A stretch of 64,000 nucleotides of DNA from Escherichia coli (GCF_030384885.1 NZ_CP128613.1), one strand, 5' to 3'. Shown: positions 7,402 to 58,669, counted from the stretch's first letter. The notes: a model not told the origin generated them from the sequence alone. Made by a program: numbers and translations.

Positions 7402-7443
7402 GGCCTGTGTTCTTAATTATCTTCGCGAATTATTTGCCCGAAA

Positions 7444-7641: not shown

Positions 7642-7962
7642 ATGGAAAAGAAACACATTTATCTGTTTTGTTCTGCGGGCATGTCTACCTCTTTACTGGT
7701 ATCAAAAATGCGCGCACAGGCAGAAAAATATGAAGTTCCGGTCATTATTGAAGCATTTCCGGAAACACTGGCTGGTGAAAAAGGTCAGAATGCCGATGTC
7801 GTGTTATTAGGGCCGCAGATTGCTTATATGTTGCCCGAAATCCAGCGTTTGTTACCCAACAAACCGGTTGAAGTAATTGACTCGCTGCTTTATGGCAAAG
7901 TCGATGGTTTAGGCGTGCTTAAGGCTGCGGTTGCAGCGATTAAAAAAGCCGCAGCAAATTAA
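7642..7962 (+). CDS. chbB: PTS chitobiose/cellobiose-specific EIIB component
   Basis: 106-aa [23 protein letters not shown] with the active-site Cys of lactose-family EIIB. Confidence 0.9.
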
Positions 7963-8046
7963 TTTATTTTAAATTTTCCCGTCAAAGAGTTATTTCATAA
8001 ATCAATACCGCAATATTTAAATTGCGGTTTTTAAGGGTATTTTTCT

Positions 8047-15393: not shown

Positions 15394-15636
15394 ATGAAGA
15401 AACCGCTCCGTCAGCAAAACCGCCAGATTATTAGCTATGTCCCACGCACGGAACCCGCGCCGCCAGAACATGCGATAAAGATGGATTCGTTTCGTGATGT
15501 CTGGATGCTGCGTGGCAAATATGTTGCGTTTGTACTGATGGGAGAGTCATTTCTGCGCTCACCGGCGTTTACTGTGCCTGAATCCGCCCAGCGTTGGGTA
15601 AATCAGATCCGCCAGGAAGGGGAAGTGACTGAGTAA
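15394..15636 (+). CDS. cedA: Cell division modulator CedA
   Basis: Track ORF 15373..15636; start set at ATG 15394 (MKKPLRQQNRQIISYVPRTEP), 80 aa. Confidence 0.85.
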   Translation: MKKPLRQQNRQIISYVPRTEPAPPEHAIKMDSFRDVWMLRGKYVAFVLMGESFLRSPAFTVPESAQRWVNQIRQEGEVTE

Positions 15637-15912
15637 GGATTACGTACCTCCCGGTTTTGCCGGGAGTTACATGGCCTGAAATTTTGTATTTCATTGCTAC
15701 ATTCATTCAAACCACCTGTAACAAAAAGCTGCCTTTGACGATCTATTGCTATAAATAAGTGATCTTTTTTCTTTAATTGTTTATTTATTTTAAAATGGTT
15801 AAGTTTTGCTAATCATGATGAGCTATTTTTGATAGTTCATCCTGTGGCGTCGCTCTTAAACTTATATTGTAAATGACTTAGATTTAAATGAGATAATAAT
15901 TTTGTTAACAAT

Positions 15913-16728
15913 ATGAGGCGGGAGATGTTTTCTACAAACTTAATACAGAGTAATTATGGTGATTTAAATATTAAAAGCCTGGCTTTCGACTCTTTTAAAG
16001 AAAGGCTGCAGTCTACTATGACAGCACTCACTTTCTTTATATCAACGGGGCAATGTGACTGCGATGAAATAGCAGAATCAAACTTTAATTATATGATTGC
16101 CTATATGTCTAACATTAACTATGATGCCTCAAAGCCAGGAGCGCCAGCACTTAGTTTTGATACATATCTGCAGGACAATGTTAAATATAGAGTAATAATT
16201 AATAATCTTTATGGTAGTGAAATTCGGATAAGAGGTATAAATAAAGATTTTATTGGAATGGATGTCGCTTCTGTATTTCGCCCAGAAAAGATGACCAATT
16301 TGATCAATATAAAAAACAGGTTGGTTATTCACTATTTAAGGACTATATACTATGAACAAAATTATATACATCCTGCCGGGAGTATTTTTTCTGCAATTCA
16401 AAAAAATGAGAGTCTCCTAAAGTTTCCTTCGGTAATATCAATGCTTAATGTCAATCTTCTTTTTAATCCACTGAATCTTCCGGGAATGGGAAGTGGTGTG
16501 CTTGAAGAGATTATGAGTATTTCAGATAGTTCACTTAGAAAACGTCTTGGGTATGAGGTTTTAAGCTTCTCGCTACAAGCACATTCATTGAGTCAGGAAT
16601 GTATTGATAAGTTAGCCATTTTTTTCGCTGACGATCTGTTTAAATATGAGTCAGTATGCATCGCCGCGATGGAACATTTAAAAAGTAAGGCAACGGCCCC
16701 TATACAAAACGGACCGTTGCCAGCATAA
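15913..16728 (+). CDS. ydjO: Uncharacterized protein YdjO (AT-rich)
   Basis: 271-aa ORF (a second in-frame ATG at 15925 would give 267 aa); strongly AT-rich with AT-rich upstream region. Confidence 0.8.
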   Translation: MRREMFSTNLIQSNYGDLNIKSLAFDSFKERLQSTMTALTFFISTGQCDCDEIAESNFNYMIAYMSNINYDASKPGAPALSFDTYLQDNVKYRVIINNLYGSEIRIRGINKDFIGMDVASVFRPEKMTNLINIKNRLVIHYLRTIYYEQNYIHPAGSIFSAIQKNESLLKFPSVISMLNVNLLFNPLNLPGMGSGVLEEIMSISDSSLRKRLGYEVLSFSLQAHSLSQECIDKLAIFFADDLFKYESVCIAAMEHLKSKATAPIQNGPLPA

Positions 16729-41929: not shown

Positions 41930-44308
41930 ATGTCCAACAATGGCTCGTCACCGCTGGTGCTTTGGTATAACCAACTCGGCATGAATGATGTAGACAGGGT
42001 TGGGGGCAAAAATGCCTCCCTGGGTGAAATGATTACTAACCTTTCCGGAATGGGTGTTTCCGTTCCGAATGGTTTCGCCACAACCGCCGACGCGTTTAAC
42101 CAGTTTCTGGACCAAAGCGGCGTAAACCAGCGCATTTATGAACTGCTGGATAAAACGGATATTGACGATGTTACCCAGCTTGCGAAAGCGGGCGCGCAAA
42201 TCCGCCAGTGGATTATCGACACTCCCTTCCAGCCTGAGCTGGAAAACGCCATCCGCGAAGCCTATGCACAGCTTTCCGCCGATGACGAAAACGCCTCTTT
42301 TGCGGTGCGTTCCTCCGCTACTGCAGAAGATATGCCGGACGCTTCTTTTGCCGGTCAGCAGGAAACTTTCCTCAACGTTCAGGGTCTTGACGCCGTTCTC
42401 GTGGCAGTGAAACATGTATTTGCTTCTCTGTTTAACGATCGCGCCATCTCTTATCGTGTGCACCAGGGTTACGATCACCGTGGCGTGGCGCTCTCCGCCG
42501 GTGTTCAGCGGATGGTGCGTTCCGACCTCGCATCTTCTGGCGTGATGTTCTCCATTGATACCGAATCCGGCTTTGACCAGGTGGTGTTTATCACTTCCGC
42601 TTGGGGCCTTGGTGAAATGGTCGTGCAGGGCGCGGTTAACCCGGATGAGTTTTACGTACATAAACCGACACTGGCGGCAAATCGCCCGGCTATCGTGCGC
42701 CGCACCATGGGGTCAAAAAAAATCCGCATGGTTTACGCGCCGACCCAGGAGCACGGCAAGCAGGTTAAAATCGAAGACGTACCGCAGGAACAGCGTGACA
42801 TCTTCTCGCTGACCAACGAAGAAGTGCAGGAGCTGGCAAAACAGGCCGTACAAATTGAGAAACACTACGGTCGCCCAATGGATATTGAGTGGGCGAAAGA
42901 TGGCCACACCGGCAAACTGTTCATTGTGCAGGCGCGTCCGGAAACCGTGCGCTCACGCGGTCAGGTCATGGAGCGTTATACGTTGCATTCACAGGGTAAG
43001 ATTATCGCCGAAGGCCGTGCTATCGGTCATCGCATCGGCGCGGGTCCGGTGAAAGTCATTCATGACATCAGCGAAATGAACCGCATTGAACCTGGCGACG
43101 TGCTGGTCACTGACATGACCGACCCAGATTGGGAACCGATCATGAAGAAAGCATCTGCCATCGTCACCAACCGTGGCGGTCGTACCTGTCACGCGGCGAT
43201 TATCGCTCGTGAACTGGGCATTCCGGCGGTAGTGGGCTGTGGTGATGCAACAGAACGGATGAAAGACGGTGAGAACGTCACTGTTTCTTGTGCAGAGGGT
43301 GATACCGGTTACGTCTATGCTGAGTTGCTGGAATTTAGCGTGAAAAGCTCCAGCGTGGAAACGATGCCGGATCTGCCGTTGAAAGTGATGATGAACGTCG
43401 GTAACCCGGACCGTGCTTTCGATTTCGCCTGCCTGCCGAACGAAGGCGTGGGCCTTGCGCGTCTGGAATTTATCATCAACCGTATGATTGGCGTCCACCC
43501 ACGCGCACTGCTTGAGTTTGACGATCAGGAACCGCAGTTGCAAAACGAAATCCGCGAGATGATGAAAGGTTTTGATTCTCCGCGTGAGTTTTACGTTGGT
43601 CGTCTGACTGAAGGGATCGCGACGTTGGGTGCTGCGTTTTATCCGAAGCGTGTCATTGTCCGTCTCTCTGATTTTAAATCGAACGAATACGCCAACCTGG
43701 TCGGTGGTGAACGTTACGAGCCAGATGAAGAGAACCCAATGCTCGGCTTCCGTGGCGCGGGACGTTATGTTTCCGACAGCTTCCGCGACTGCTTCGCACT
43801 GGAGTGTGAAGCGGTGAAACGTGTGCGCAACGACATGGGACTGACCAACGTTGAGATCATGATCCCGTTCGTGCGTACCGTAGATCAGGCGAAAGCGGTG
43901 GTTGAAGAACTGGCGCGCCAGGGGCTGAAACGTGGTGAAAACGGGCTGAAGATCATCATGATGTGTGAAATTCCGTCCAACGCCTTACTGGCAGAGCAGT
44001 TCCTCGAATATTTCGACGGCTTCTCAATTGGCTCAAACGATATGACGCAGCTTGCGCTTGGTCTGGACCGAGACTCCGGCGTGGTGTCTGAACTGTTCGA
44101 TGAGCGCAACGATGCAGTGAAAGCACTGCTGTCGATGGCGATTCGTGCCGCGAAGAAGCAGGGCAAATATGTCGGGATTTGCGGTCAGGGTCCGTCCGAC
44201 CATGAAGACTTTGCCGCCTGGCTGATGGAAGAGGGGATCGATAGCTTGTCCCTGAATCCGGACACTGTGGTACAAACCTGGTTAAGCCTGGCTGAACTGA
44301 AGAAATAA
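41930..44308 (+). CDS. ppsA: Phosphoenolpyruvate synthase
   Basis: 792-aa ORF with phosphohistidine domain motif ([21 protein letters not shown]). Confidence 0.97.
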
Positions 44309-44364: not shown

Positions 44365-46065
44365 TTATTCAACCTCTTCGCAGATATCCTGAGTTAATCG
44401 CCGCATAATATCTTTCCTTAACAAAAACTTTTGTATTTTACCTGATGCAGTACGTGGTAATTTCTCTGTTACCACAATATGTTCAGGATATTTATATTTT
44501 GCTACCCGTTTACGGCTAAAAAAAGCCACTATGTCTTTCAGCGATATTGAATGATGTGGCGCTTTCAGCACGACATAAGCGCATGAACGTTCACCTAAGC
44601 GTTCATCGGGCATTGCCACAACACAAGCATCATGAATTTTAGGATGCTGTAATAAAATATCTTCCACTTCACGACTGCTAATATTTTCCCCGCCGCGGAC
44701 AATAATATCTTTCTTGCGCCCGGTTATTTTTATATAGCCAGCTTCATCCATTCGGCAGAGATCGCCGCTGTAATACCAGCCTTCTTCATCCAGCGCACGG
44801 GCGGTTAATTCAGGTTCATCAAAATACCCCATAAATACATTGGGGCCACGCGAGGCTTCTTCACCTACACAACCAGGCGGTAAGGTCTTGCGTGCATCAT
44901 CGACCACTTTAATCTCTACGCCTGCGGCAGCGTAACCATCGGTGTTCATAAAGCGCGACAAAGGATCGTCGAGATTTACCACCGCATGCGGCGAACTTTC
45001 TGTGGAACCATAAACACTTAATAATTTAATGCCGCGTTGTTGGCATTCACGCGCCACCTTTTTGGGGATCGTGGTGCCGCCGCAAAGAAAGAAGCGGAGT
45101 GCTGAAAGGTCCGCAGGCTGTTTTTCCAGTAAGTTCAGCAAATCATAGACAAATGGCGTGGCGCCGAGCATACAGGTGCAACGCTGCTGCTCAAGCAGCG
45201 CGAGACACGCATCAGGAGTGAAAATATCTAACAACACGCTGCGAGCACCAATCAAAAAAGGTGCCGTTACGCCATGCAGAAAGCCCGTTGCGTGACCAAG
45301 TGGCGCAGGCATCATAAAGACATCCTGCCAGGTCAGGTTCAGCCGCGCGCAATATGCCCGCTCACTGGCGAGAATATTGTTATGCGTTAGCATCACGCCC
45401 TTTGGCTGCCCCTCAGTTCCGGAGGTAAATAGCACTGCTGCTAATTCATCGCCGTGGACCGTTATTGCCTTAGTCAGTGGGGTATTGTCGGCGATAAGAT
45501 GACTTAACGAGAGGGACGAGGTGGCGGGGGCCAGTTTGTCGACGCCGACGATTTGCTGTAGTTGTGGAAGCTGATTTTGCAGCGGCAGGATTAAATCTAC
45601 CGGACGCGTTTGTTTAAACAACGTCGGTGCAAAGAACATTTTTGCCTGACACTTATTGAGCACCCACACCAGTTCAGCCTCCCGCCAGGAAGGCAACAGC
45701 GGCACGGAAACCGCACCGGTTTTCAGGCAGGCAAGATAGATAACGGTAAATTCACACCAGCCAGGCAGTTGAAAAGCAATGCGATCCCCTGATTCAATAC
45801 CCTTCGCCAGCATCCAGTTTGCCAGACAGCTCGCGGCGTGATCGAGCTCGCTATAGGTGTACGATGCACCATGATTATCGACCACGGCAATTTTATCTGG
45901 CATCGAACGAGCGGTCTGCTGCCAGTAATCGGCCAGCGAAGCATCGCCCCATAATCCTTGTTGACGATAAGCCGCACGACGTTGTTCGTTAAACGTTAAT
46001 GTCACTTTCATTTTGGACTCTCGAAACAGAACATCAGGCCCGAGATACGGGCCTGTGGGATGCAT
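44365..46065 (-). CDS. fadK: Acyl-CoA synthetase (short/medium-chain, anaerobic) FadK
   Basis: 566-aa ORF with AMP-binding motif (TSGTEGQPKGV); ATG at 46065 lies 2 nt after the ydiT stop; an internal ATG at 46011 (MKVTLTF) would give 548 aa. Confidence 0.85.
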   Translation of the reverse strand: MHPTGPYLGPDVLFRESKMKVTLTFNEQRRAAYRQQGLWGDASLADYWQQTARSMPDKIAVVDNHGASYTYSELDHAASCLANWMLAKGIESGDRIAFQLPGWCEFTVIYLACLKTGAVSVPLLPSWREAELVWVLNKCQAKMFFAPTLFKQTRPVDLILPLQNQLPQLQQIVGVDKLAPATSSLSLSHLIADNTPLTKAITVHGDELAAVLFTSGTEGQPKGVMLTHNNILASERAYCARLNLTWQDVFMMPAPLGHATGFLHGVTAPFLIGARSVLLDIFTPDACLALLEQQRCTCMLGATPFVYDLLNLLEKQPADLSALRFFLCGGTTIPKKVARECQQRGIKLLSVYGSTESSPHAVVNLDDPLSRFMNTDGYAAAGVEIKVVDDARKTLPPGCVGEEASRGPNVFMGYFDEPELTARALDEEGWYYSGDLCRMDEAGYIKITGRKKDIIVRGGENISSREVEDILLQHPKIHDACVVAMPDERLGERSCAYVVLKAPHHSISLKDIVAFFSRKRVAKYKYPEHIVVTEKLPRTASGKIQKFLLRKDIMRRLTQDICEEVE

Positions 46066-46067
46066 GA

Positions 46068-46361
46068 TTAGCCGTAGCGAAAATCAATACCGAAGGTGCC
46101 TGCGGGATATTGCCACTGTTCGAGAATCGTATTGCCACACAACACCCGACAGGTGCCGCATTCGAGACAACCGGCGGAATCAAAATGTATGTTTCCTGCG
46201 TCATCCTGCTTATACAGTCCGGCAGGGCAAGCTTTCATTAATTTACGGAATTCATTGATATCGGGATTTGCCGCCAGAATGATATGCGGGTGACCCTCAT
46301 CAACATGGAATTTATTGACACCTAATTTGATGTCGACGTTAACCGTAGCGTTCTGGCTCAT
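46068..46361 (-). CDS. ydiT: Ferredoxin-like protein (FixX homolog)
   Basis: 97-aa ORF with Cys clusters (CLECGTCRVLC); overlaps ydiS stop by 4 bp. Confidence 0.85.
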   Translation of the reverse strand: MSQNATVNVDIKLGVNKFHVDEGHPHIILAANPDINEFRKLMKACPAGLYKQDDAGNIHFDSAGCLECGTCRVLCGNTILEQWQYPAGTFGIDFRYG

Positions 46362-47647
46362 AGCGCGGTTGCTCCCTTAATGCCATCTTTCAGCAAGTTG
46401 ATCAGCCCAATTTTCTTCGCATGTCCCATGATCATTTTGCGTACCGGTTGGTTAGGCTTACCGTCGATAGTGAACATTTCGTTCATGATGTCGGCGACCA
46501 TTCGTGGGTATTGGCTAAACAGGCGCGGGTTTTCCATCAGCGCCGGGATCTTGCGAAAATGCTGCATATCACGCATGACGCAACTTTGTTCCAGCTCACG
46601 TTTGTATTGCGCCAGGCTGCTGGCGGAGAAGTCAGCGCGTTCTTTAGCGGCAATCACTGTTGTGGCAGCAGCCTGGGCCGATGCGATGGCTAAATCCATT
46701 CCGCGAACCGTAAAGCCCAGATTGAGGCAGAAACCTGCGGCATCACCGACGATCATCACGCCCTCATTAACCAGCTGCGGCACCATCGCCAGACCGCCTT
46801 CCGGCACCATGTGCGCGGAATATTCAAGCAGTTTGCCGCCGCTAATCAGTGGGCGAATGGCGGGGTGTTGTTTAAAATCTTCCAGCATTTGCGGCACGCT
46901 TTTTTTTGCATGGGCGATATCACCCAATCCACAAACCAGCCCCAACGATACGGAATCCTTGTTGGTATAGAGGAATCCGCCGCCCATCAGGCCGTCAGAA
47001 GGGGAACCGGCAAACAGCCAGGCGGTACCTTCCTCGCCCATAACATTAAAGCGATCGTTGATTTGCTCTGGTGTAAGACCAATAACCTCTTTAACACCAA
47101 CTGCGTAATGATGCGGATCGGAAGCGGGAACCATTCCCAGCGAGCGGCCAAGCATTGAGTTAACGCCATCAGCCAGAATCACTACATTCGCTTCGAGAAT
47201 ATCCTCCCCGGCCTGGACGCCAGTGACCTTGTTTCCTTCACGAACCAGCGCATCGACGCGAACACCCGGGATAAACTGCGCACCCGCCTGTTCGGCTAGT
47301 TCCATCAACCACGGGTCCAGACGATTACGCAATACGGTATAAGACGCGTGTTGCGGAACATCTGGTTGCTCGCGGTGAAAATCGAGGGTAACGGCACTCT
47401 CTTCGGTTAAGAAGGAGATTTTCTCGCGTGTGACCTTGCGTTCTACCGGTGCTGATGCAGCAAAGCCCGGAATGATCGCTTCAAGTGTGTGGGCATAAAG
47501 ACGCCCGCCGGTCATATTTTTGCATCCGGCACTGTCGCCGCGTTCTATCACCAGGACATCCAGCCCGGCTCGCGCCATGACCAGTGCGGCAACGCTACCG
47601 GCAACGCCCGCACCGACCACAATGGCATCAAATTTGTCATCCGACAT
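46358..47647 (-). CDS. ydiS: FAD-dependent oxidoreductase (FixC / ETF-quinone oxidoreductase-like)
   Basis: 429-aa ORF with N-terminal FAD-binding fold (FDAIVVGAGVAGSVAALVMARAGLDVLVIERG). Confidence 0.9.
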   Translation of the reverse strand: MSDDKFDAIVVGAGVAGSVAALVMARAGLDVLVIERGDSAGCKNMTGGRLYAHTLEAIIPGFAASAPVERKVTREKISFLTEESAVTLDFHREQPDVPQHASYTVLRNRLDPWLMELAEQAGAQFIPGVRVDALVREGNKVTGVQAGEDILEANVVILADGVNSMLGRSLGMVPASDPHHYAVGVKEVIGLTPEQINDRFNVMGEEGTAWLFAGSPSDGLMGGGFLYTNKDSVSLGLVCGLGDIAHAKKSVPQMLEDFKQHPAIRPLISGGKLLEYSAHMVPEGGLAMVPQLVNEGVMIVGDAAGFCLNLGFTVRGMDLAIASAQAAATTVIAAKERADFSASSLAQYKRELEQSCVMRDMQHFRKIPALMENPRLFSQYPRMVADIMNEMFTIDGKPNQPVRKMIMGHAKKIGLINLLKDGIKGATAL

Positions 47648-47701: not shown

Positions 47702-48640
47702 TTAGCGACTCAACTGACTAATCAGGGCAGGGACGACTTTGTAGATATCGCCCACCAGACCGTAGTCGGCATAGTTGAAGATTGGCGCATTTTTATCTTT
47801 ATTAATGGCGACAATCACTTTTGCACCGTTGCCGCCAACCATATGCTGGATCTGCCCGGAGATCCCCAGCGTCAGGTAGAGATCGGATTTCAGCAACACG
47901 CCGGAGACACCGATATAACGTTCACGCTCCATCCAGTTCTCGCCTTCGGCAATTGGACGTGAACAGCCGACTTCAGCATTCAGAACCGCCGCCAGTTCGT
48001 GGACCATTTTCAGGTCATCCTGCGCCGCCAGACCACGACCGACGCCAACCACACGTTTTGCTTTGCTCAGGTCCACGCTGCTTGCCGCTTTCGCACGGCG
48101 TTCGCGACAGAGAATTTCATGACGCGGGGCAACATAAGGTACCGTTTCTGTCGGGCACTGATGAGAGATATCACTGGTGCACGGTTCCTGAACACCGGGT
48201 GCAAGGGTAATGATCGCCAGCGGGCTGTTGATCTTTTCCTGAGCGAACGCTAACCCGCCATACATCCGGTGTTCGGCGCAAATGTGACCATCGACAATAT
48301 CCACCGCCGTGGCATCGTTCACCAGCGCCGCATTCAGTTGCACACTTAACCGTGCTGCCAGAGCTTTACCACGTTTCGTCGCGGCCAACAGCAACATAGC
48401 GGGGTGTTTATCTTTCAGCAGGGCAGCAATGCTTTCGGCGTAATTTTCAGTACGTTGCAGCGCGTCGTTTTGTTCAAGAACATAAATACATTTTGGCCCA
48501 TAAGGCATAACTGCCTGCGCCTGGTCGGTATTTTGTACAATGGCATACACCTGTTGGCCCCATTGCTGAGCGCCGCCAAACAGTTCAGCATAACGTTCAG
48601 GATTATCGCTAAAGACCCAGACGCTGTTTAATTGACTCAT
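47702..48640 (-). CDS. ydiR: Electron transfer flavoprotein alpha subunit (FixB homolog)
   Basis: 312-aa ORF recognised as ETF alpha. Confidence 0.9.
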   Translation of the reverse strand: MSQLNSVWVFSDNPERYAELFGGAQQWGQQVYAIVQNTDQAQAVMPYGPKCIYVLEQNDALQRTENYAESIAALLKDKHPAMLLLAATKRGKALAARLSVQLNAALVNDATAVDIVDGHICAEHRMYGGLAFAQEKINSPLAIITLAPGVQEPCTSDISHQCPTETVPYVAPRHEILCRERRAKAASSVDLSKAKRVVGVGRGLAAQDDLKMVHELAAVLNAEVGCSRPIAEGENWMERERYIGVSGVLLKSDLYLTLGISGQIQHMVGGNGAKVIVAINKDKNAPIFNYADYGLVGDIYKVVPALISQLSR

Positions 48641-48659: not shown

Positions 48660-49424
48660 TCAGTTCAGGGCTTTCTTCAGATGTTCCGCCAGCTCGGCAA
48701 TGGCCTCCGGCGAATCGTTATCGAGAATGATGTGCTTACGTTCTGTTTGCGGCGGTACGCGAATGCCGGTCAGTTCAGCAAGTGGTGTGCTCTGGCTCCA
48801 GCCAATATCACTTGCCTGCCACTGATTTACCGGTTTTTTACCCGCGCCGAGAATGGCTTTCATCGAAGGAATGCGTGGCATGTTAATATCGGAGGTGACG
48901 CAGAGCACGGCTGGAACAGAGAGCTCAATAACTTCAACATCATCTTCAAGCGTGCGTTCAATCACCAGTGTATTGCCCTGACGCTGAATAGCACTCACTG
49001 CATTAATCACCGGAAGTTGCAGAATTTCTCCGACCAGCAAGCCAACCTGCTGGGCATAAAGGTCGCCGGAACCTTCACCAAAGATCAGTAAATCGAAGCC
49101 GATCTTTTCAACTGCTGCCGCCAGCGCCTTTGCGGTATCGAGAGGCAGTGCATGTTCAAGTTGCGCATCCTGCACCAAATACAGGCTATGCGGCCCGCGG
49201 GATAGCACGTCTTTGCGCACTTTCGAGTTCTGCAACAATGAGCCGCCAATGGTCAGCGCGGCTATCTCATCGTCATCTGTTGCAATCTGGCTTGCAGCTT
49301 CAATGGCATTGAGATCGAACTGGCTGATTTTGGCGTCGGCATTGTCGAAATTCAGGGTATATTCTGGAGTGACAACAATGTCCTGTTCTTCAGGCACCAG
49401 CTTAAAGCAGGTTATTATTTTCAT
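48660..49424 (-). CDS. ydiQ: Electron transfer flavoprotein beta subunit (FixA homolog)
   Basis: Track ORF extends to 49523; ATG at 49424 (MKIITCFKLVPEEQD) gives the expected 254 aa. Confidence 0.88.
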   Translation of the reverse strand: MKIITCFKLVPEEQDIVVTPEYTLNFDNADAKISQFDLNAIEAASQIATDDDEIAALTIGGSLLQNSKVRKDVLSRGPHSLYLVQDAQLEHALPLDTAKALAAAVEKIGFDLLIFGEGSGDLYAQQVGLLVGEILQLPVINAVSAIQRQGNTLVIERTLEDDVEVIELSVPAVLCVTSDINMPRIPSMKAILGAGKKPVNQWQASDIGWSQSTPLAELTGIRVPPQTERKHIILDNDSPEAIAELAEHLKKALN

Positions 49425-49739
49425 GATTTCTCCTGTGAGTCGCATACGGAACCATCTCCGATGGAAGGTAAAAATGGCCTGAAAATAGTGTGCGATAGCG
49501 GTGCGGGGTTTTCGACGGAGCAAGCTGTTTTCCTTGCCAACAATCTTGCAAAAAAAATGCGATCGCTAAAACAAAAGTGCAATTTGCGGCAAAGTTGTTA
49601 TTCCATGACCGTACAATCTTGCATTCAGTGTAAATAATCTTGTTTAGCTCTCGCTAAACGCGGTTGTATAACCGCAATACACGCCGTATTTTATCCGGCA
49701 TATATTGTTTTTGCTTGCTCATGGAATAGGGAGGTTGTC

Positions 49740-50651
49740 ATGTATCAACGCTGTTTTGATAACGCCAGCGAAACGCTGTTTGTCGCCGGTAAAACGCCAC
49801 GGCTTTCACGTTTTGCATTTAGCGATGATCCAAAATGGGAGTCCGGACATCACGTTCATGACAATGAAACCGAGTTGATTTACGTCAAGAAAGGGGTAGC
49901 AAGGTTTACCATCGATTCTTCGTTATATGTCGCGCATGCCGATGACATTGTGGTGATAGAACGTGGCAGGTTGCATGCGGTGGCCTCTGACGTTAACGAT
50001 CCGGCAACGACGTGTACCTGTGCGCTGTACGGCTTTCAGTTTCAGGGGACTGAGGAAAATCAGCTACTGCAACCGCATTCTTGCCCGGTCATTGCCGCAG
50101 GGCAGGGAAAAGAAGTCATTAAAACCTTATTTAATGAGCTAAGTGTGATTTTGCCGCAAAGTAAAAATAGCCAAACATCTTCGTTATGGGACGCATTTGC
50201 CTATACGTTAGCAATTCTTTACTACGAAAACTTTAAAAATGCTTATCGTTCGGAGCAGGGGTATATTAAAAAAGATGTTCTGATAAAAGATATTCTTTTC
50301 TATCTGAATAATAATTATCTCGAAAAAATCACTTTAGAGCAGTTATCGAAAAAATTTCGTGCCAGCGTCAGTTATATCTGCCATGAATTTACCAAAGAGT
50401 ATCGTATTTCCCCTATTAACTATGTTATTCAACGGCGTATGACGGAAGCGAAATGGTCACTCACTAATACTGAATTATCACAGGCAGAGATCTCCTGGCG
50501 TGTGGGTTATGAAAATGTCGATCACTTTGCCAAACTGTTTTTGCGCCATGTCGGCTGTTCGCCCAGCGATTACCGCAGGCAATTTAAAAACTGTTTTGCG
50601 GAACAAGAAATCCTATCTGAATTTCCTCAACCAGTAAGTCTTGCCGGATAA
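49740..50651 (+). CDS. ydiP: AraC-family transcriptional regulator
   Basis: 303-aa ORF with C-terminal AraC helix-turn-helix; AT-rich; divergent from ydiQ. Confidence 0.85.
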   Translation: MYQRCFDNASETLFVAGKTPRLSRFAFSDDPKWESGHHVHDNETELIYVKKGVARFTIDSSLYVAHADDIVVIERGRLHAVASDVNDPATTCTCALYGFQFQGTEENQLLQPHSCPVIAAGQGKEVIKTLFNELSVILPQSKNSQTSSLWDAFAYTLAILYYENFKNAYRSEQGYIKKDVLIKDILFYLNNNYLEKITLEQLSKKFRASVSYICHEFTKEYRISPINYVIQRRMTEAKWSLTNTELSQAEISWRVGYENVDHFAKLFLRHVGCSPSDYRRQFKNCFAEQEILSEFPQPVSLAG

Positions 50652-50655
50652 ATCT

Positions 50656-50687
50656 GGCGGCGCAGTTTGTTAAGAAGCTGCGCCGCC
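50656..50687. terminator. Bidirectional hairpin between convergent ydiP and ydiO
   Basis: 10-bp perfect arms ggcggcgcag/ctgcgccgcc with a 12-nt loop; no strong T-run. Confidence 0.4.
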
Positions 50688-50693
50688 TGCAGA

Positions 50694-51845
50694 TTATTTG
50701 TTCTGATAATCTTTCAGGATCTGCCGACCCGCTACGTAAATCATAATTTCGTCTGTACCGCCGCCGATACGTTCACAACGGACATCACGCCAGAAGCGGG
50801 AGACGCGCGCCTCATCGGTATAGCCCAGACCGCCCATGATTTGAATCGCATCATCAATAACTTCCATTGCGGTACGTGCGCAGTACAGTTTTGCCAGCGC
50901 CGCGCTGGTGCGCAGTGACTGATGCTGATCGGCTTGCCATGCCACTTTCAACACCATGTTGCGCATGTTGTCGATCTTAATCGCCATCAGCGCCAGTTTT
51001 TCCTGGATCATCTGGTTATGACCAATGGGTTTACCAAAAGCGATACGTTGGTTGGCATAGCGGGCGGCATCTTCGAATGCGCATTCGGCAAAGCCGGTGC
51101 TGCGCGCGGCGTTGATCAGGCGCTCCATCTCAAAGTTGTACATCACATTGAGGAAACCCATTCCTTCTTCGCCCACCATGTCGCTCTCTTCAACCTCTAC
51201 GTTGTCGAGATAGACTTCGCAGGTGCTGAGCATATGCCAGCCGATTTTATGCAGCGGGTTAATCTTAATGCCGGGCTTACTGGAGTCGACCCACCACAGG
51301 GTGAAGGCTTTTTTGGGATCTTTCGGTTCTGGATCGCGCGCCAGCACCAGCATATATGGGTACTCTTTCGCGCCGGTAATAAAGGTTTTCTGGCCGTTGA
51401 TGTAAACCTTGCCATTTTTACGCGTGTAAGTGGTAGTGGCACTGTTATTGTCTGAGCCTGCGCCTGGTTCCGTCAACGCCAGGGCATAGGCGGGATCACC
51501 CGTTTCCAGGGTGCTCTCTGCCGTTTTACGTAGCTGCTCAGCAGAACCGAAACGGCGCATGCTGTGAATACATTGACCGTTGGTAATCAAAAATGCCGGA
51601 GCACCGCATTTTGACACTTCCATCAGCGCCAACATCTGGGTGACGTAATCCGCAGGGATGCCACCAAATTCTTCCGGCACGCCAAGCATAGAAATGCCGT
51701 TATCCGCCAGTGCCCGCATAAACTCACGCGGGTATGTCCCGTTTTGATCGCAGGTGCGGAAATACTCTTCCGGGAAGTTGGTCGTAATCAACTCGCGAAT
51801 ACTGGCCAGCAGCAGTTCTTGTTCTTCAGTTAAAGAAAAATCCAT
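50694..51845 (-). CDS. ydiO: Acyl-CoA dehydrogenase-family protein
   Basis: Track ORF 401 aa; ATG at 51845 (MDFSLTEEQELLL) gives 383 aa; ACAD fold with C-terminal ETF-interacting region. Confidence 0.88.
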   Translation of the reverse strand: MDFSLTEEQELLLASIRELITTNFPEEYFRTCDQNGTYPREFMRALADNGISMLGVPEEFGGIPADYVTQMLALMEVSKCGAPAFLITNGQCIHSMRRFGSAEQLRKTAESTLETGDPAYALALTEPGAGSDNNSATTTYTRKNGKVYINGQKTFITGAKEYPYMLVLARDPEPKDPKKAFTLWWVDSSKPGIKINPLHKIGWHMLSTCEVYLDNVEVEESDMVGEEGMGFLNVMYNFEMERLINAARSTGFAECAFEDAARYANQRIAFGKPIGHNQMIQEKLALMAIKIDNMRNMVLKVAWQADQHQSLRTSAALAKLYCARTAMEVIDDAIQIMGGLGYTDEARVSRFWRDVRCERIGGGTDEIMIYVAGRQILKDYQNK

Positions 51846-51858
51846 CGTGATACTCCTG

Positions 51859-53454
51859 TTAATGAGCCGCTTCAGGCAGGACAAAACCCATCGCCGCATC
51901 GATAAATAATCTTTCGTCCATCAGTTTGAGTTCTGGTGAAATCACTGGGGTGAAATCCATTTTGTCGAGAATATCTTTTTGTAAATCGACGCCAGGGGCG
52001 ATTTCGATTAAATGCAGGCCGTCTTCTTTTAGCGTGAATACGGCGCGCTCAGTGATATAACGAACATCCAGCCCTCGCTCGAGAGCGATTTTTCCGCTGA
52101 AAGTAATTTCCGGTAGTTCCCGAATAAATTTCTTCACCCGTCCTTCCTGGACGATATTTAATTTGCCGTCGGTAATTTCTGTTTTTAAACTGCCCGCAGT
52201 TAACGTGCCGCAGAAAACGATTTTCTTCGAAGTGGCACTGATATCAATAAATCCACCGGTGCCCATGATTTTACCATTGAATTTATGCACGCCGACGTTA
52301 CCGTGCTGGTCGACTTCAGCAAAACTCAAATAACAAACATCCAGACCGCCACCGTGATAAAAATCAAACTGGGACGTCATATCCAGAATGGCACGGGTAT
52401 TCACGTTCGCGCCAAAGGCGATACCCTGTGAAGTAATACCGCCAATTGGGCCTGTTTCTACCGTCAGAATAAAGTCATCAGCACAACCTTCTTCCCGGGC
52501 GACCAGGCCAATGCCGTCAGCAATACCGACGCCGACATTCCCCACCGCGCCTTTACGCATTTCGAATAATGCGCGCCGCGCAACTAATTTACGTTGGTTT
52601 AGGGGCAGGCTAAGTTTGGTACTGTCATCAAGGGTGAAGTCACCAGAAATAAAGCGGTTAACCGGCGCACCGCCATACAGTTGGGTTTGATCCGGATCGA
52701 CCACCACAATATCCACCAGATAACCCGGAATACGGACAGATTTAGGATGCAGCGTGGCTTTCTTAACCATTTTCTGCACCTGCATCATCACAATACCGCC
52801 GTTATTGTGCACCGCCTGAGCAATAACCAATGCGTCGAGATACATCACCTCATCTTCAAAAGTGGCGTAGCCTTCGCTGTCGCAGGTGGTAGCGCGAATG
52901 AAGGCGATATCTGGCGCTATCGCTTTGTAATAGAGATATTCTTTGTTATCAAACTCGACCAGTTTAATCAGGTCTTCTTTAGTGACTTCATTCAGTTTGC
53001 CGCCTTGCTGGCGTGGATCGACAAATGTTCCGATGCCAATATCACTAATAATACCAGGCTGGTGGGCTGCGGCGGCGCGTAAGGTTTGTGTAAGTACACC
53101 TTGTGGATAGTTATAAGCAATAATTTTATTTTGTTCTGCGAGATCAGAAATACGCGGCGATTGTCCCCAGTGACCGCATAATGCCCATTTCACCAGACCT
53201 TCTTGTGCCAGCGGACTAATACCACGGTCGGCGCGATCGCCAAGCCCTGTTGGACTAATAATCGATAAATTACGTGGTGTTTGAGTCTGTTTATATTTAT
53301 CAGCAAGAGCAGTAATTAACGTGGTGGCTTCCAGAATACCGCCGCCAGCGCCTAACACACAAAGTGTTGCTTCGTCGGGAATATAATTCACCGCTTCCTG
53401 TGCCGACAGGACCGGCACTCGTCCATTAATACGAGGTGGTTTTACAGGTTTCAT
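51859..53454 (-). CDS. ydiF: Acyl-CoA:acetate/short-chain acid CoA-transferase (fused alpha/beta)
   Basis: 531-aa ORF recognised as a family I CoA-transferase. Confidence 0.9.
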   Translation of the reverse strand: MKPVKPPRINGRVPVLSAQEAVNYIPDEATLCVLGAGGGILEATTLITALADKYKQTQTPRNLSIISPTGLGDRADRGISPLAQEGLVKWALCGHWGQSPRISDLAEQNKIIAYNYPQGVLTQTLRAAAAHQPGIISDIGIGTFVDPRQQGGKLNEVTKEDLIKLVEFDNKEYLYYKAIAPDIAFIRATTCDSEGYATFEDEVMYLDALVIAQAVHNNGGIVMMQVQKMVKKATLHPKSVRIPGYLVDIVVVDPDQTQLYGGAPVNRFISGDFTLDDSTKLSLPLNQRKLVARRALFEMRKGAVGNVGVGIADGIGLVAREEGCADDFILTVETGPIGGITSQGIAFGANVNTRAILDMTSQFDFYHGGGLDVCYLSFAEVDQHGNVGVHKFNGKIMGTGGFIDISATSKKIVFCGTLTAGSLKTEITDGKLNIVQEGRVKKFIRELPEITFSGKIALERGLDVRYITERAVFTLKEDGLHLIEIAPGVDLQKDILDKMDFTPVISPELKLMDERLFIDAAMGFVLPEAAH

Positions 53455-53597
53455 TGTTAATTCCTGATTCAGGTGTGATTTTCCCTACGCCAGATGGAGA
53501 ATTAGCGCACAGAGACTCACGAAATATTTTTATTAAATACGGTTGAATATATTTTTTTGTTCGGCGGGGGAGGGTATTCCCGCCGAAATATTATTGC

Positions 53598-54356
53598 TTA
53601 TGCCTGATGTAAAATAGTTAATACCGTGCGCAAATCATTTACCGAGATTTGCCCTGGCGCAGAGGCTTTTTTTACCGCACCAAAAGTTGCCGCCGAGCCA
53701 AATACTTCACCAGCCAGACGAGAAATTACGCCAGTTTTTGCCATCGACATCGTGATGATTGGACGATCGGCATACTGCTCCTGCATCTCCAGGGTCGCAG
53801 CAAGCAACGTCAGCACATCGCTGGTACTTTGCGGCATCAGCGCAATCTTAGGAATATCGGCATCGAAGGACTGCATTTTGCGCAGACGGGCAATGATTTC
53901 TTCGGCTTCCGGCGTTTTATGGAAGTCATGGTTGGACATGACAACTTTCACATCATGCGCGTGGGCGTAGGCGACGGTTTCTTTAACCTGATCATCGCCG
54001 GTAAATAACTCCAGATCGATCATATCAACCAGGCCACTATCGATGGCTGCACGATTGAGTGCAATATAAGCCTCGGTGGAAATCGCCTGCTCGCCGCCTT
54101 CTTTGGCACTGCGGAAGGTAAACAGCAGCGGTTTTTCTGGCATGGTTTCACGGAGAATTTTTGCCGCTGCCATGACAGACTCCACATTGGAGAGGTCGGC
54201 ATAGTGGTCAACACGCCATTCCAGAATATCAAAGTCCGCTTCACGATAGGCGAGAGCTTCGGATTTCACGCTGGCGATATCTTTCGCCATCAGCGAGACG
54301 ATGATTTTAGGTGCGCCCGTACCAATGACGAGATCTTTTACAGTTACGGTTTTCAT
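53598..54356 (-). CDS. aroD: 3-dehydroquinate dehydratase (type I)
   Basis: 252-aa [55 protein letters not shown]. Confidence 0.93.
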
Positions 54357-54386: not shown

Positions 54387-55253
54387 TCAGGCACCAAACC
54401 CCATGACCTGTTTAACATATTCCAGAGGGAAATCTTTGCCAGTCCATAACGTGAACTGTTCAGCCCCTTGCCACAACAACATGCCGTATCCATCAATCGT
54501 TTTGCAACCAGCTTGTTGCGCCTGCTGCAATAACTTCGTCATATGCGGGTTATACACGCATTCAGTGACCAGAAGTCCCGGATGTAACAGACTGATATCA
54601 TTAACCAATGATTCATTCTCAAGGGGTTTCATACCCACTTTTGTGCCATTGGTTAAAATGTCGGCGGAAGCCAGGGCTTCAGCAAAGGCTTGCTGATCGG
54701 CGAGATCGGTGACTGTCACGACGCAATCGGTGTTTTCGTTAACCCGCTGCGCGAAGGCGAGGGCTTTATCGAAGAACTCATCCCGACGGTTAAAGAGTTT
54801 AATTTCTTTTAAACCTTCAATTGCCCCCTGCGCGCCAATCGCCGTTGAGGCACCTCCGGCCCCTAACAGCACCATCGTTTTGCCTTTGATATCAAAACCG
54901 CTCTCTTTAATGGCGCGAATATGCCCCGTGCCGTCGGTGTTATAGCCACGCAGATAGCCATCATCATTAACGATGGTGTTGATGGCCCCCACCAGTTTGG
55001 CAGCTGGTGTTAATTCATCAACATATTCACACGCCAGTTGTTTGTTCGGCATTGATACACCAGTTCCGCGCATTTTTAGAGCTTTTAATCCTTCAATTGC
55101 TCCGGGAAAGCTATCGTTATCCACTTCAAAGGCCATATAGGTAAATGGCAATCCCGCTTTTTCTAAGGCTTTATTCTGCATTTCGGGCGATAAACTGTGG
55201 CGGATAGGATAGGCCATCAACCCAATCAATTCGTATTTTGCGGTAACATCCAT
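54387..55253 (-). CDS. ydiB: Quinate/shikimate dehydrogenase (NAD-dependent)
   Basis: 288-aa [38 protein letters not shown] (shikimate dehydrogenase fold). Confidence 0.9.
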
Positions 55254-55264
55254 AATTAACTCCT

Positions 55265-56530
55265 TTAACCTCTATGCTTAATTGTGTTTAACCGGGTGCT
55301 AAATTTACGCTCGCCAAACCGCACATCATTTTCAGGAATAATGAAAACGCGGTAATAGCGGATAAAAACAATAATTGCGGTAATCAGGGCCAGCAGCGCG
55401 AAAGTAAAATCGAGAACAATGATATATTGCAGGCCGATGTTCGACAGATAACCGGTAATCAGCGGAATAACAAAGTTAGCCAGTCCACCCATCATCATAT
55501 AAATACTGGTGACTTTGGCTTTGCTTTTGGGGAAAAACTCTGACATGACCGAAACGCCGAGCTGTAAAATGCCGCCAGCCGCTGAGAAACCGATAACAAA
55601 GGCTCCGGCATTACACACCAGTGGAGAAGGGTACAGGTAGATAATGGCAGCTGTTATTGTTGCCAGTGCAGAGTTAAATACATTAGCCCAGATGGGCCGG
55701 ACCATTTTTTTCAGTAGTGCGGCAAAAATAAAGACACAGACCAACGAGCCCATACTGTAATAAGAGATGGTTTTTAATGCCTCAGCTTCTGACATACCAG
55801 CAAAAGCCATCGCATATTTGGGCATCCACACCACAATCACATAAAAGGTCGAGAATGCGGCTACACCGAACAGTACCGATGAAACACCTTCCAGCCAGAC
55901 TAATGGTTTGCTGTTCATTTGTGGTAATTCATGAGCTACGCTGGCGTCCACCAACTGGCTGGGGAATTTGCTTTTCAACAGCATCAACGTGATCAGTAAA
56001 AATAGGATGCCTGGAATAATCAGCCCATAGCCGTACCAGATATTATTGAGCAACATATAGCTCACTAGCATTGGATAGAACATTTGTCCAAATGACACCA
56101 TTGCTTTAACCAGTATGACTGCCGAACCGGAGGCTTTCGGAAAGCATTCCATTAGCGCGGGGTAACCACCCGTATCCAATGCTGAGTTAGCGATACCTAC
56201 GCACACTGCCAGACAGTAGGCGAGAGTTAAATTCGGGCAAGCGGGAATACCAAAGAAGAATAGCAGATACATTATTACTGCCATTAATATTACCGCCCGA
56301 CGACCAAACTTATCGGAGATCACACCGAAGAATAAAATACTGATCAATCGCCCCAAACCGATACCGGAAATTAAATAGGCAATGCCCGCGTTGTCAGTAG
56401 AAAACTTTTCTGCCAGAGATGACATATTTTGGGCAAGCGTTATAACACTAATGCCGTGCAGGAAATAGCTGAAGTAAATACAAAGAACAGCCAGGATAAA
56501 TGGCGTGCTGAAAGCCTTATTTTGAGACAT
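55265..56530 (-). CDS. ydiN: MFS transporter YdiN
   Basis: Track ORF starts at GTG 56536; ATG at 56530 ([20 protein letters not shown]) gives 421 aa; 12 predicted TM segments. Confidence 0.85.
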
Positions 56531-56756
56531 TTTCACAGCTCCTTGCTGAAAGATAATTTCGTTACCGTACGTATTGTTCTCCGACGGTTTACATAATTAC
56601 TATACTGAAGATGATTTTCCCTGGGTACATGGCATAAAGTTTATGTTTCCAGGAATATTGCATGTCATAGTTTGTTTTTTATCGCGATTTTCCTTAGTTG
56701 GCGCAGAAAGAGTTATTTATCCGTAAGATCTTGCATGACCTGAAAAGAATATTGCA

Positions 56757-57971
56757 TTACCCACCCGGAGCGACATTTTCCTTTAGCGAGTGATGCCACG
56801 TTTCTTTGCGGCTGCGTAAGCCGATAAACAGTGCCAGTAAAAAGCCGATGGCAGCGATGGCGGTATCGAACCACATAATATCGGCAATACTTCTTTGGGA
56901 CAGATGAGCCGTAATCAACGGAATAGTAAAGGTCGCAATACTGCCCGCACTGTAATAGATCCCTGTAGCTTTACCTTTAGCGTAGGGGAAACGTTCAGCC
57001 ATTAATGTCAGGCCAATTTGCACAACACCTCCAGCAGAGGTAAAACCAATGACAAAAGCAAATATTATCACCACATAAAATGTGGGATGCAGACAGACGG
57101 TAAACAGAGCAATAAATGAGATAAAGGTGTACAGCATCAGTAATGTTGTTGGGCGAACGGTATTACGAATGAGTGGAGCGGTAATAAATACACAAAGCAG
57201 CGAACCCACGGTGTAGATACTGAGTAGTTTGATCGACATAGTGTATGACATGCCTGCAACAAATTGTCCGTACTGTGCCAGCCACTGGCTAACCAGATAA
57301 AAGGTTGCCATTGAGATATAGCCATATAAGGTATAACTGGCTAAATCGATAATTGAACAGCGATGTTCCGTAGAGTTGGTGGCTTTCTCTATGACAGGTA
57401 AGCGACGACCCGGATGTGGTGGGAACGTACAACGGTATAAAAACAGAGCGTTAATAAACATAATGCCTGCGGCAATCATAAAGGACCAGCCGAACCACAG
57501 TTCAGCCCACACTAACAGGCTGATGATTAGCGGTAATAAAAATTGCCCGCTGGAAACAAATGCTTTAATTAAAATATTAGCTGTACCCGGTGAACGTGGA
57601 AAAGCTTCCATCAAACTGGGATAGGTGCCTGCATCGAGAAAACTGTTTGCCATTCCCGCCAGAAAGCCCAAACCATAAGCGATAATGATGTTATTGGTGT
57701 GCAGGATGCCAAAAAAGAAGGCCATATAGCAGCACATCCCGAGCATGATAAAAGGGCGGCGACCAAAGCGATCGGATAATAATCCTGCAAAAAGCAAGAC
57801 ACTTAATCGACCAATACCCAGCGATGAGATAACTATTGAGACGCCTGCGGCATTAGTCTGCCAAAGCGTCTCCAGCGAGGCCATATTCAGGCTCATCAAA
57901 ATGACGCCCATACCATGCACCAGGTAATTAAAATACAACCCAAGTGCGGTAGGGAAATAGGGATTTTTCAT
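56757..57971 (-). CDS. ydiM: MFS transporter YdiM
   Basis: 404-aa polytopic ORF, paralogous in architecture to ydiN. Confidence 0.85.
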   Translation of the reverse strand: MKNPYFPTALGLYFNYLVHGMGVILMSLNMASLETLWQTNAAGVSIVISSLGIGRLSVLLFAGLLSDRFGRRPFIMLGMCCYMAFFFGILHTNNIIIAYGLGFLAGMANSFLDAGTYPSLMEAFPRSPGTANILIKAFVSSGQFLLPLIISLLVWAELWFGWSFMIAAGIMFINALFLYRCTFPPHPGRRLPVIEKATNSTEHRCSIIDLASYTLYGYISMATFYLVSQWLAQYGQFVAGMSYTMSIKLLSIYTVGSLLCVFITAPLIRNTVRPTTLLMLYTFISFIALFTVCLHPTFYVVIIFAFVIGFTSAGGVVQIGLTLMAERFPYAKGKATGIYYSAGSIATFTIPLITAHLSQRSIADIMWFDTAIAAIGFLLALFIGLRSRKETWHHSLKENVAPGG

Positions 57972-58426: not shown

Positions 58427-58564
58427 CGTGTAATGGCTGCATGAAATAAACAATAAAATATAAATAACATTATCAGCCTGCTGACGGCTTGAAGAGAGTC
58501 ACAGTATCTTGTGCAACATTATTGGAAAGAGTGAGGGGCGAGGTAGCGAAGCGGAAAAATGTTA

Positions 58565-58669
58565 AAAAAAAGCCCATCGTGGGAGATGGGCAAAGACTAC
58601 ACACAGCAATTCGTTGTTTCACTCAGGGGATTTCCATGCTTATAAATCAATATGTTGATTTATAACCGT
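58565..58669 (-). ncRNA. rprA: Small regulatory RNA RprA (RpoS translational activator)
   Basis: Reverse complement matches the RprA sequence as I recall it (ACGGTTATAAATCAACATATTGATTTATAAGCATGG...CCCATCTCCCACGATGGGCTTTTTTT), with a 3' terminator hairpin (cccatctcccacgatggg) and U-run; no ORF. Confidence 0.8.

Follow-up and report, generated by a model that had tools for sequence, protein, structure and literature searches.

AraC, RhaS/RhaR, MelR and XylS characteristically act at tandem direct repeats with a 21-bp periodicity, and the closest described counterparts of the locus studied here are the araC-araBAD and melR-melAB control regions and, among metabolic gene clusters, cai/fix. We analyzed a stretch of the Escherichia coli chromosome of 64,000 nt (the window) in which ydiP, encoding an AraC/XylS-family regulator, is divergent from ydiQ, and found four direct-repeat boxes with 21-bp spacing in the control region between the two genes. 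To our knowledge ydiP, ydiO, ydiF and ydiQRST have long been poorly understood K-12 genes, widely put to use in engineered reverse beta-oxidation without a known natural role. We consider it probable that the boxes are YdiP operators that co-regulate a conserved 11-gene ydi cluster; the operator and regulon that we predict for YdiP are new, and of a well-known kind.

Genes were taken from RefSeq, as annotated in an E. coli record with 100% identity, and a 601-bp probe over the region, 100% identical to a RefSeq E. coli genome, was found in 5367 of 5426 complete genomes. An earlier reading of this DNA from its letters alone (the sequence-only reading) had named the genes, placed ydiP divergent from ydiQ and convergent with ydiO, and given the intergenic region as 315 bp, all of which agrees with the RefSeq annotation and Pfam; ydiP, which it called AT-rich, is modestly so (GC 0.41-0.45 versus 0.50-0.55 in the flanking genes). 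The elements of the control region are as follows, with scores in bits from a 16-column position weight matrix (PWM) that was trained on ydiQ-ydiP boxes alone, taken from all genera, and scanned over the whole window (~128,000 positions).

49425-49739: ydiQ-ydiP divergent control region, 315 bp (the ydiQ start codon is 49424-49422, so 49425 is the first intergenic base).
49515-49532, + strand: box 0, a degenerate half-site with core AAGCTG at 49522-49527 and then TTTTC, 21 bp left of box 1.
49536-49551, + strand: box 1, the first repeat copy, GCCAACAATCTTGCAA, core 49543-49548, followed by an invariant A7-8 tract.
49609-49624, + strand: box 2, the second repeat copy, CCGTACAATCTTGCAT, core 49616-49621, 20.0 bits.
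49630-49645, + strand: box 3, GTAAATAATCTTGTTT, core 49637-49642, 21 bp from box 2, 18.5 bits.
49740-50651, + strand: ydiP, AraC/XylS-family regulator (Pfam HTH_18, Cupin_2, AraC_binding).

The sequence-only reading had singled out an exact 10-bp direct repeat in this region as a plausible pair of AraC-type half-sites, with shuffled-sequence controls as one possible refutation. The repeat, CAATCTTGCA at 49541-49550 and 49614-49623, is real and one base longer than claimed, the full exact repeat being the 11-bp ACAATCTTGCA at 49540-49550 and 49613-49623 with a spacing of 73 bp. By within-sequence statistics alone it fails multiple testing: dinucleotide-preserving shuffles of the region (n=5000) gave P=0.056 for a repeat of at least 10 bp and P=0.015 for at least 11 bp, the window holds 40 exact direct repeats of at least 10 bp with copies no more than 300 bp apart, and near-matches to the repeat word with up to two mismatches occur at the chance rate (25 found versus 24.9 expected). 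These figures favor a functionless chance repeat in AT-rich DNA and come close to refuting the claim, which is rescued by cross-genus conservation. Cross-genus invariance, fixed 21-bp partners and recurrence upstream of ydiN effectively refute the chance explanation, and we regard it as hardly credible. It is comparative data, and not sequence statistics, that lift the repeat above chance; the lesson that an exact short repeat needs comparative evidence would hold even if the operator prediction failed.

Scanning for YdiP with one genome per species yielded 40 loci from Escherichia, Citrobacter, Kosakonia, Serratia, Symbiopectobacterium, Brenneria, Dickeya, Prodigiosinella and Yersinia. The 11-gene order fadK-ydiTSRQ, divergent ydiP, convergent ydiO-ydiF-aroD-ydiB-ydiN is present in all 35 loci whose contig spans the block (in the remaining five a contig end cuts the block or genes are frameshifted), and aroD-ydiB-ydiN is syntenic with ydiF-ydiO in each locus reaching that part. 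Although the ydiQ-ydiP intergenic length varies from 314 to 911 bp among loci, ATCTTGCA is the sole 8-mer common to all 10 genus-level intergenic regions (315-911 bp long) and is present in exactly two copies in each; the next-best 8-mers, AATCTTGT and ATCTTGTT, are found in 9 of the 10. The conserved part of the repeat is this 8-bp core only.

The boxes can be followed individually. In an alignment of 12 sequences from Escherichia, C. amalonaticus and Kosakonia (hereafter A1), three ATCTTG cores are invariant and the sequence between them varies freely. Box 1, the top PWM match of the window at 22.4 bits, has the A1 form CCAACAATCTTGCAAAAAAAA, and CCAACnATCTTGCAAAAA occurs in 32 of 33 loci. 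Box 2 has the consensus CRTAYTATCTTGCAT and the A1 form CGTAnnATCTTGCAT. Box 3, absent from the sequence-only reading, is the best conserved of boxes 1-3, with AAATAATCTTGTT invariant in A1 and AATTTTGTT in the C. freundii group. Box 0 reads GAGCAAGCTGTTTTCC in E. coli, matches box 3 at 7 of 10 positions and has AAnCTGTTTTC invariant in A1; its homologue in distant genera is a highly conserved block, ACGACATGATAATATGTTTTAG. The repeat word is thus the core, ATCTTG(C/T)(A/T), common to a set of ~16-bp operator half-sites, and their most likely binder is the locally encoded YdiP.

All four boxes are direct repeats on the + strand and form two tandem sites, boxes 0 and 1 beside ydiQ and boxes 2 and 3 beside ydiP. 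In every genus exactly 21 bp separate box 2 from box 3, box 0 has the same distance to box 1, and in most genera box 2 lies 123-126 bp and box 3 102-105 bp upstream of the ydiP ATG. The spacing between boxes 1 and 2, in contrast, changes with the lineage: Escherichia, C. amalonaticus and Kosakonia have 73-74 bp, the C. freundii group has ~251 bp, and Serratia, Brenneria, Dickeya, Prodigiosinella, Yersinia and a genome labeled Martelella alba have 327-354 bp. Because this spacing is variable and a different neighbor lies at a constant 21 bp from each copy, the exact copies do not pair with each other. An AraC-type operator is therefore still the best reading of the control region, but the pairing of the two repeat copies as half-sites does not survive spacings from 73 to 354 bp. 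An Rfam search of the 315-bp control region gave no match at E<=1.

In Serratia, Brenneria, Dickeya, Prodigiosinella and Yersinia, the ~330 bp between the box pairs contains a conserved CRP/FNR-like site, TGTGAnnnnnnATCA, and the same long spacer has a conserved TTGTAAAT...TGT...TTGTAT block. The 73-bp spacer of Escherichia, C. amalonaticus and Kosakonia has neither element, and E. coli has lost the spacer segment bearing the CRP/FNR-like site.

The PWM scan also revealed that the layout occurs again between ydiM and ydiN, where the elements span 56627-56757:

core 56634-56639, + strand: box 0N, the box-0-like AGCAnGnnGTTT, ahead of box 1N in the same register.
56648-56663, + strand: box 1N, GGAATATTGCAT, PWM rank 19 of ~128,000.
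56721-56736, + strand: box 2N, CCGTAAGATCTTGCAT, PWM rank 7 of ~128,000.
56742-56757, + strand: box 3N, AGAATATTGCAT, PWM rank 9 of ~128,000.

These boxes are on the same strand, repeat the 73- and 21-bp spacings and lie at a constant 7112-bp offset from the ydiQ-ydiP boxes. AraC-type direct repeats on one strand are found for boxes 0-1 and 2-3 (21 bp) and for boxes 2N-3N (21-22 bp). Same-strand pairs 20-22 bp apart with both members scoring at least 7 bits occur twice in the 64 kb, at ydiQ-ydiP and at ydiN, versus 0.017 expected from composition-preserving shuffles. The ydiN boxes are kept in Citrobacter and Kosakonia with a distal spacing of 73, 74 or 84 bp, and Yersinia, Dickeya and relatives keep one proximal box. 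No ydi boxes were found in the paralogous K-12 cai/fix locus, which served as a control. The sequence-only reading had seen a self-contained module within 49425-53454; this is too narrow, as the recurrence of the layout at ydiN and the 11-gene synteny argue for a larger regulon.

We also considered whether the two control regions are clear duplicates and rejected this, with gapless identity outside the boxes of 34% versus a null of 25% (z=2.3); they share an architecture instead. In Yersinia frederiksenii, a gene for a LysR-family regulator (15632-16534 of that locus, + strand) is divergent from ydiN and replaces ydiM and ydiL, and a single ydi box is left upstream of ydiN; a second regulator may thus act in such genera.

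The recurrence at ydiN bears on another arrangement, in which boxes 1 and 2 are the half-sites of one YdiP dimer with 73 bp looped out, as in the AraC O2-I1 loop. The two boxes best match each other (11/11), 73 bp is ~7 helical turns and is also the spacing at ydiN in E. coli, and the ydiN-region spacings of 73, 74 and 84 bp differ by about one turn. However, the ydiQ-ydiP spacing is not conserved (73, ~251 or 327-354 bp), each copy has its own 21-bp partner that is conserved everywhere, and only in E. coli do the two copies agree over 11 bp: in E. albertii and E. whittamii copy 2 is ACTATCTTGCA, with one flank position different. We consider this arrangement improbable; looping between the two tandem sites is possible as an addition to the tandem-site model, not as a replacement.

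YdiP has the domains of the AraC family. HTH_18 matches residues 202-281 above its cut-off (E=9.6e-21) and HTH_AraC matches too; AraC_binding covers residues 28-144 with 41 bits (cut-off 21.1), in addition to Cupin_2, and the PDB matches are the DNA-binding domains of AraC, SoxS and YesN. No NCBIfam equivalog reaches its cut-off (for the MelR family, YdiP scores 37.5 bits against a cut-off of 253), indicating that YdiP is not an orthologue of AraC, RhaS, MelR or HpaA. Among 12 YdiP orthologues, 61% of positions are invariant in the DNA-binding domain versus 30% in the ligand domain, and this twofold higher conservation fits an unchanging operator. As ydiP is the only regulator gene inside the syntenic cluster and always accompanies the boxes, we infer that YdiP is the binder. 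In the genome labeled Martelella alba, the YdiP frame (7391-8110 of that locus) stops at 240 aa and loses the second HTH, with the three boxes intact, which could be either a recent pseudogene or an assembly error.

The boxes could also be real operators of another regulator, such as a global or unlinked factor (for example CytR) or the nearby Aca2/YdiL-like HTH protein YdiL. The CytR octamer is GTTGCATT, and several boxes read CTTGCATT or ATTGCATT, which match it at 7 of 8 positions. The invariant part of the boxes is shifted, however, being ATCTTG and not TTGCATT; GCA is absent from boxes 0 and 3; the sites are spaced by 21 bp and not by 2-3 bp; and the E. coli control regions lack the flanking tandem CRP sites that CytR requires, since a CRP scan of them gave only a 3-mismatch word at 49558-49573, at chance level. 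For YdiL, the case is that it is an HTH protein with a conserved box-like word in the ydiL promoter; Aca2-type proteins, though, bind inverted repeats and the ydi boxes are 21-bp direct repeats, and the clusters of Yersinia, Serratia and Dickeya, with their fully conserved boxes, lack ydiL and ydiM. Another regulator is further favored by the published chromatin immunoprecipitation (ChIP) studies, neither of which places YdiP at this locus, and by the CytR targets udp and deo among the 2022 ChIP-seq peaks (PMC9283627). Since only ydiP always travels with the boxes, we think that a different binder is unlikely.

The ydiL promoter block itself, AACAAATAATATTGCACAAGATACTGTGACTCTCTTCAAG (58480-58530, - strand), lies between the rprA terminator and the ydiL ATG (58426) and is conserved in Escherichia, Citrobacter and Kosakonia. 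Its box-like word scores 12.9 bits in E. coli and 16.0 in Citrobacter, and the block also contains an overlapping inverted ATCTTG and a 2-mismatch CRP-like site at 58488-58503. Given that YdiL is an Aca2/YdiL-like HTH protein, this block may be its own operator and not a YdiP site. Directly upstream of it is the RprA small RNA gene (58562-58669, - strand; Rfam RF00034, 118.5 bits).

Neither the ydiQ nor the ydiP side of the control region has a consensus sigma-70 promoter, as expected of activator-dependent promoters. Based on the sequence, we propose the following putative elements:

49482-49487, - strand: putative ydiQ -10, TATTTT, without an upstream -35 consensus, within the conserved block GAAATAGTGTGCG.
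reverse complement of 56599-56604: putative ydiN -10, TATAGT, which would set box 0N near -45.
49664-49692, + strand: putative ydiP promoter, with -35 TTGTAT (49664-69), a 17-bp spacer and -10 TATTTT (49687-92), which would set box 3 near -60.
49667-72, + strand: alternative ydiP -10, TATAAC, corresponding to the universal GTGnTATA of distant genera, which would set box 3 near -40.

The putative ydiQ -10 would set box 0 near -50 and box 1 near -70, and on the ydiP side TTGnAT and TATTTTA are conserved in A1. A sigma-54 promoter at box 1 (TGCCAA-N5-TTGCA) was rejected: GC replaces the near-invariant GG of the -24 element (TGGCAC-N5-TTGCA), and box 2 has no -24 element.

We also weighed whether the conserved words are themselves core promoter parts, namely -35-like hexamers (TTGCAA, TTGCAT, TTGTTT) or UP-like A-tracts. 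TTGCAA agrees with TTGACA at 4 of 6 positions and an invariant A-tract follows box 1, but no box has an acceptable -10 at 16-18 bp downstream, conservation reaches 5' of TTG (ATC and further) past a -35 hexamer, and four same-strand copies with 21-bp periodicity and a second locus are not a promoter pattern. This explanation is very unlikely.

In the mechanism that we propose with YdiP as the binder, weak box 0 and strong box 1 would form site A, beside a ydiQ promoter without a -35 consensus, and boxes 2 and 3 would form site B, beside the ydiP promoter, through which YdiP would autoregulate its own gene. One YdiP dimer would occupy each tandem site, with 21 bp representing a two-turn periodicity. 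Binding of an effector to the cupin would cause YdiP to fill the weak promoter-proximal half-site, as at AraC araI2 and MelR site 2', and YdiP would then recruit RNA polymerase to the ydiQRST-fadK and ydiN-ydiB-aroD(-ydiF-ydiO) promoters, so that its presumed sign of regulation is activation. The operator would probably link the shikimate/quinate genes (aroD-ydiB-ydiN) to the flavoprotein and acyl-CoA genes, and as effector we would guess at a hydroaromatic acid from the shikimate/quinate family.

Published expression data are available for both box-bearing operons. In the shikimate-overproducing strain PB12.SA22, ydiQ, ydiR, ydiS and ydiT were upregulated 20-32x in stationary phase and were among the most induced genes (PMC4015609), and ydiN, ydiB and aroD were jointly upregulated in another shikimate producer, according to the account of Johansson & Liden 2006 given in PMC4585142. 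With one study per operon, the two therefore respond in similar physiological settings. We found no literature linking both operons, or linking YdiP to the induction in shikimate producers.

Together, the conservation, the fixed 21-bp spacing, the recurrence at ydiN, the synteny, the AraC architecture and the induction of both operons argue that the boxes are YdiP operators. Several points weigh against this. All boxes share one direction on the + strand, so that each of the two divergent promoters meets them in the opposite orientation to the other, and no divergent gene exists on which the distal pair at ydiN could act. The promoter geometry is conjecture, with the ydiQ and ydiN -10 candidates 5 bp out of register, and we found no ydi box in the aroD-ydiF gap, which leaves the membership of ydiF-ydiO in the regulon unproven. 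ChIP-exo of YdiP (ydiP-8myc, glucose M9) reported five weak sites, at gltA-sdhC, uxaB, secG, cspA and yihQ, and none at the ydi locus (PMC8464067); after conversion of their coordinates from NC_000913.2 to NC_000913.3, these five sites hold no ydi box, the best word scoring 5.6 bits versus a median best of 3.7 per 500 bp in the window. ChIP-seq of YdiP-FLAG3 at 15 C gave kb-wide peaks at tRNA, rRNA, lpp, ompC, dnaK and similar genes, and again none at the ydi locus (PMC9283627); these peaks are highly transcribed genes, which often appear non-specifically, and are uninformative. With C-terminal tags placed beside a C-terminal DNA-binding domain, no candidate effector added and highly transcribed loci recovered, both studies are weak negatives.

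Three of the five ChIP-exo peaks (NC_000913.3 ~754527, 1610702 and 3719880) share the word CA(T)CAACCTG(G/T)nTT, with the cspA variant CAACGGTTTG. This word resembles the AAnCTGTTTT of box 0 and not the ATCTTG boxes, and we treat it as a post-hoc lead only.

Two further words lie in the 5' part of ydiP. The exact 10-bp direct repeat AACGCTGTTT occurs at 49747-49756 and 49772-49781, 25 bp apart, in ydiP codons 3-14, and a weak FlhDC genomic-SELEX peak coincides with it (PMC9962212); GCTGTTT is shared between this repeat and the core of box 0. An FNR scan of the E. coli control regions gave only a 2-mismatch word over the ydiP start codon, at chance level. Inside ydiP, the FNR-consensus-like TTGATTTACGTCAA (49875-49888, one mismatch) encodes a conserved ELIYVK motif and has near-identical counterparts at 2053, 4334 and 34401; FNR-like words are slightly over-represented in the window (56 versus 39 expected).

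The genes around the control region are, from left to right:

41930-44308, + strand: ppsA (annotation).
44365-46011, - strand: fadK, ligase (annotation; Pfam AMP-binding), in the leftward operon ydiQRST-fadK.
46068-46361, - strand: ydiT (annotation), 63% identity to FixX.
46358-47647, - strand: ydiS, flavoprotein (annotation; Pfam ETFQO-like FAD oxidoreductase), 61% identity to FixC.
47702-48640, - strand: ydiR (annotation; Pfam ETF_alpha), 45% identity to FixB.
48660-49424, - strand: ydiQ, ETF beta-like subunit (Pfam ETF), 54% identity to FixA, heading ydiQRST-fadK.
50694-51845, - strand: ydiO, acyl-CoA dehydrogenase/reductase, CaiA homologue (Pfam, three acyl-CoA dehydrogenase domains).
51859-53454, - strand: ydiF, fused family I CoA-transferase (Pfam CoA_trans).
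53598-54356, - strand: aroD (annotation; Pfam DHquinase_I).
54387-55253, - strand: ydiB (annotation; Pfam Shikimate_dh).
55265-56530, - strand: ydiN (annotation; Pfam MFS_1).
56757-57971, - strand: ydiM (annotation).

The best NCBIfam match of YdiO is NF008997, with the CaiA family second, and all 531 residues of YdiF (1-531) are covered by the match to PDB 2AHU/2AHV/2AHW, "putative enzyme ydiF" (E=0). YdiO and YdiF stand out by their high conservation: Escherichia shares 92-96% and 87-93% identity, respectively, with Yersinia, Dickeya or Citrobacter, compared with 64-86% for YdiP, FadK, YdiQ and AroD in the same loci. Upstream of ydiF-ydiO, aroD, ydiB and ydiN form a closely packed operon with gaps of 11 and 30 bp. 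The aroD-ydiF gap holds a GC-rich hairpin with an 11-bp stem (53560-53587) whose T-run suits a + strand (antisense) terminator; as the T-run is on the opposite strand and an A-run follows the hairpin on the coding strand, read-through from aroD into ydiF-ydiO looks possible.

The idea in the sequence-only reading of a CoA activation and redox module holds up, given the similarity of YdiO to CaiA (48%) and of YdiQ/R/S/T to FixA/B/C/X. Its substrate may be related to shikimate or quinate rather than being a plain short-chain fatty acid. Extending this, the whole 11-gene block could be one YdiP-controlled regulon for an unrecognized anaerobic pathway that reduces a CoA thioester derived from shikimate or quinate, which we hold to be possible but doubtful. 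A hydroaromatic acid would be imported by YdiN and interconverted by YdiB and AroD, its CoA thioester would be made by YdiF and FadK, and YdiO would reduce it with electrons from YdiQRST. The shared boxes, the synteny in every spanning locus and the induction of each operon in a shikimate overproducer are compatible with such a pathway. We found no literature tying ydiP, ydiO, ydiF or ydiQ to quinate or shikimate catabolism. A transposon mutant of Salmonella ydiP (STM14_1646) is listed with a fitness effect on alfalfa sprouts (PMC13152249), which is compatible, very indirectly, with use of plant hydroaromatic acids.

If the pathway exists, enterobacteria would use plant hydroaromatics in a manner resembling carnitine respiration, and the block could supply the missing genes for conversion of shikimate and quinate to cyclohexene- or cyclohexane-carboxylates in the gut. 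The only published claims for YdiP concern a role in cold shock and the five weak ChIP-exo sites and leave its own locus aside, and the predicted shared operator at the ydiQ, ydiP and ydiN promoters offers a cheap and concrete test of YdiP targets. It would also provide the basis of a reporter to screen for the inducer, and hence the pathway substrate, and gives reason to view aroD-ydiB-ydiN and the ETF/acyl-CoA genes as one physiological unit.

The arrangement that we predict most resembles known AraC-family systems. At araC-araBAD, a cupin plus double-HTH regulator is likewise divergent from an operon (which it controls there, and is proposed to control here), and tandem direct-repeat half-sites have a 21-bp periodicity. 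The strong distal and weak proximal half-sites I1 and I2 are comparable to boxes 1 and 0, the second tandem site at the regulator's own promoter (O1) to boxes 2 and 3, and the regulated promoters, putative ones in the case of ydi, lack a good -35 in both systems. The ydi half-site, with its ATCTTGCA core, is unrelated to that of AraC, however, and the ydi layout is known here from sequence alone; E. coli ydi has no CRP site between its sites, the CRP/FNR-like site being confined to the long regions of other genera, and the ydi boxes run in opposite orientation with respect to its two promoters.

MelR at melR-melAB (sites 1', 1, 2, 2' and R) offers the parallel of four half-sites at one catabolic promoter. 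A weak site by the -35 is filled only with inducer, for which we propose a ydi counterpart, and a further site autoregulates the divergent regulator gene, comparable to the role proposed for site B. CRP at melAB recalls the CRP/FNR-like site between the box pairs of Yersinia, Serratia, Dickeya and Brenneria. Unlike MelR, YdiP scores far under the MelR family cut-off, and the ydi layout is duplicated at a second operon, ydiN.

The genes themselves are best compared with cai/fix, the similarities quoted above coming from tblastn against K-12 cai/fix. Both clusters possess a CoA ligase and a CoA-transferase, and the divergent transcription units of cai/fix with their pathway-specific activator CaiF can be likened to those of ydi. 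The differences are equally specific. CaiB is a family III CoA-transferase, whereas YdiF belongs to family I (Pfam CoA_trans) and has no tblastn match to caiB; the ydi cluster has no CaiD-type (crotonase) hydratase; its regulator is of AraC type and not CaiF; aroD-ydiB-ydiN stands where cai has a betaine antiporter; and the ydi boxes do not occur in cai/fix. The ydi cluster works like cai/fix but, with its family I transferase, missing CaiD and different regulator and with no ydi boxes in cai/fix, does not belong to that system.

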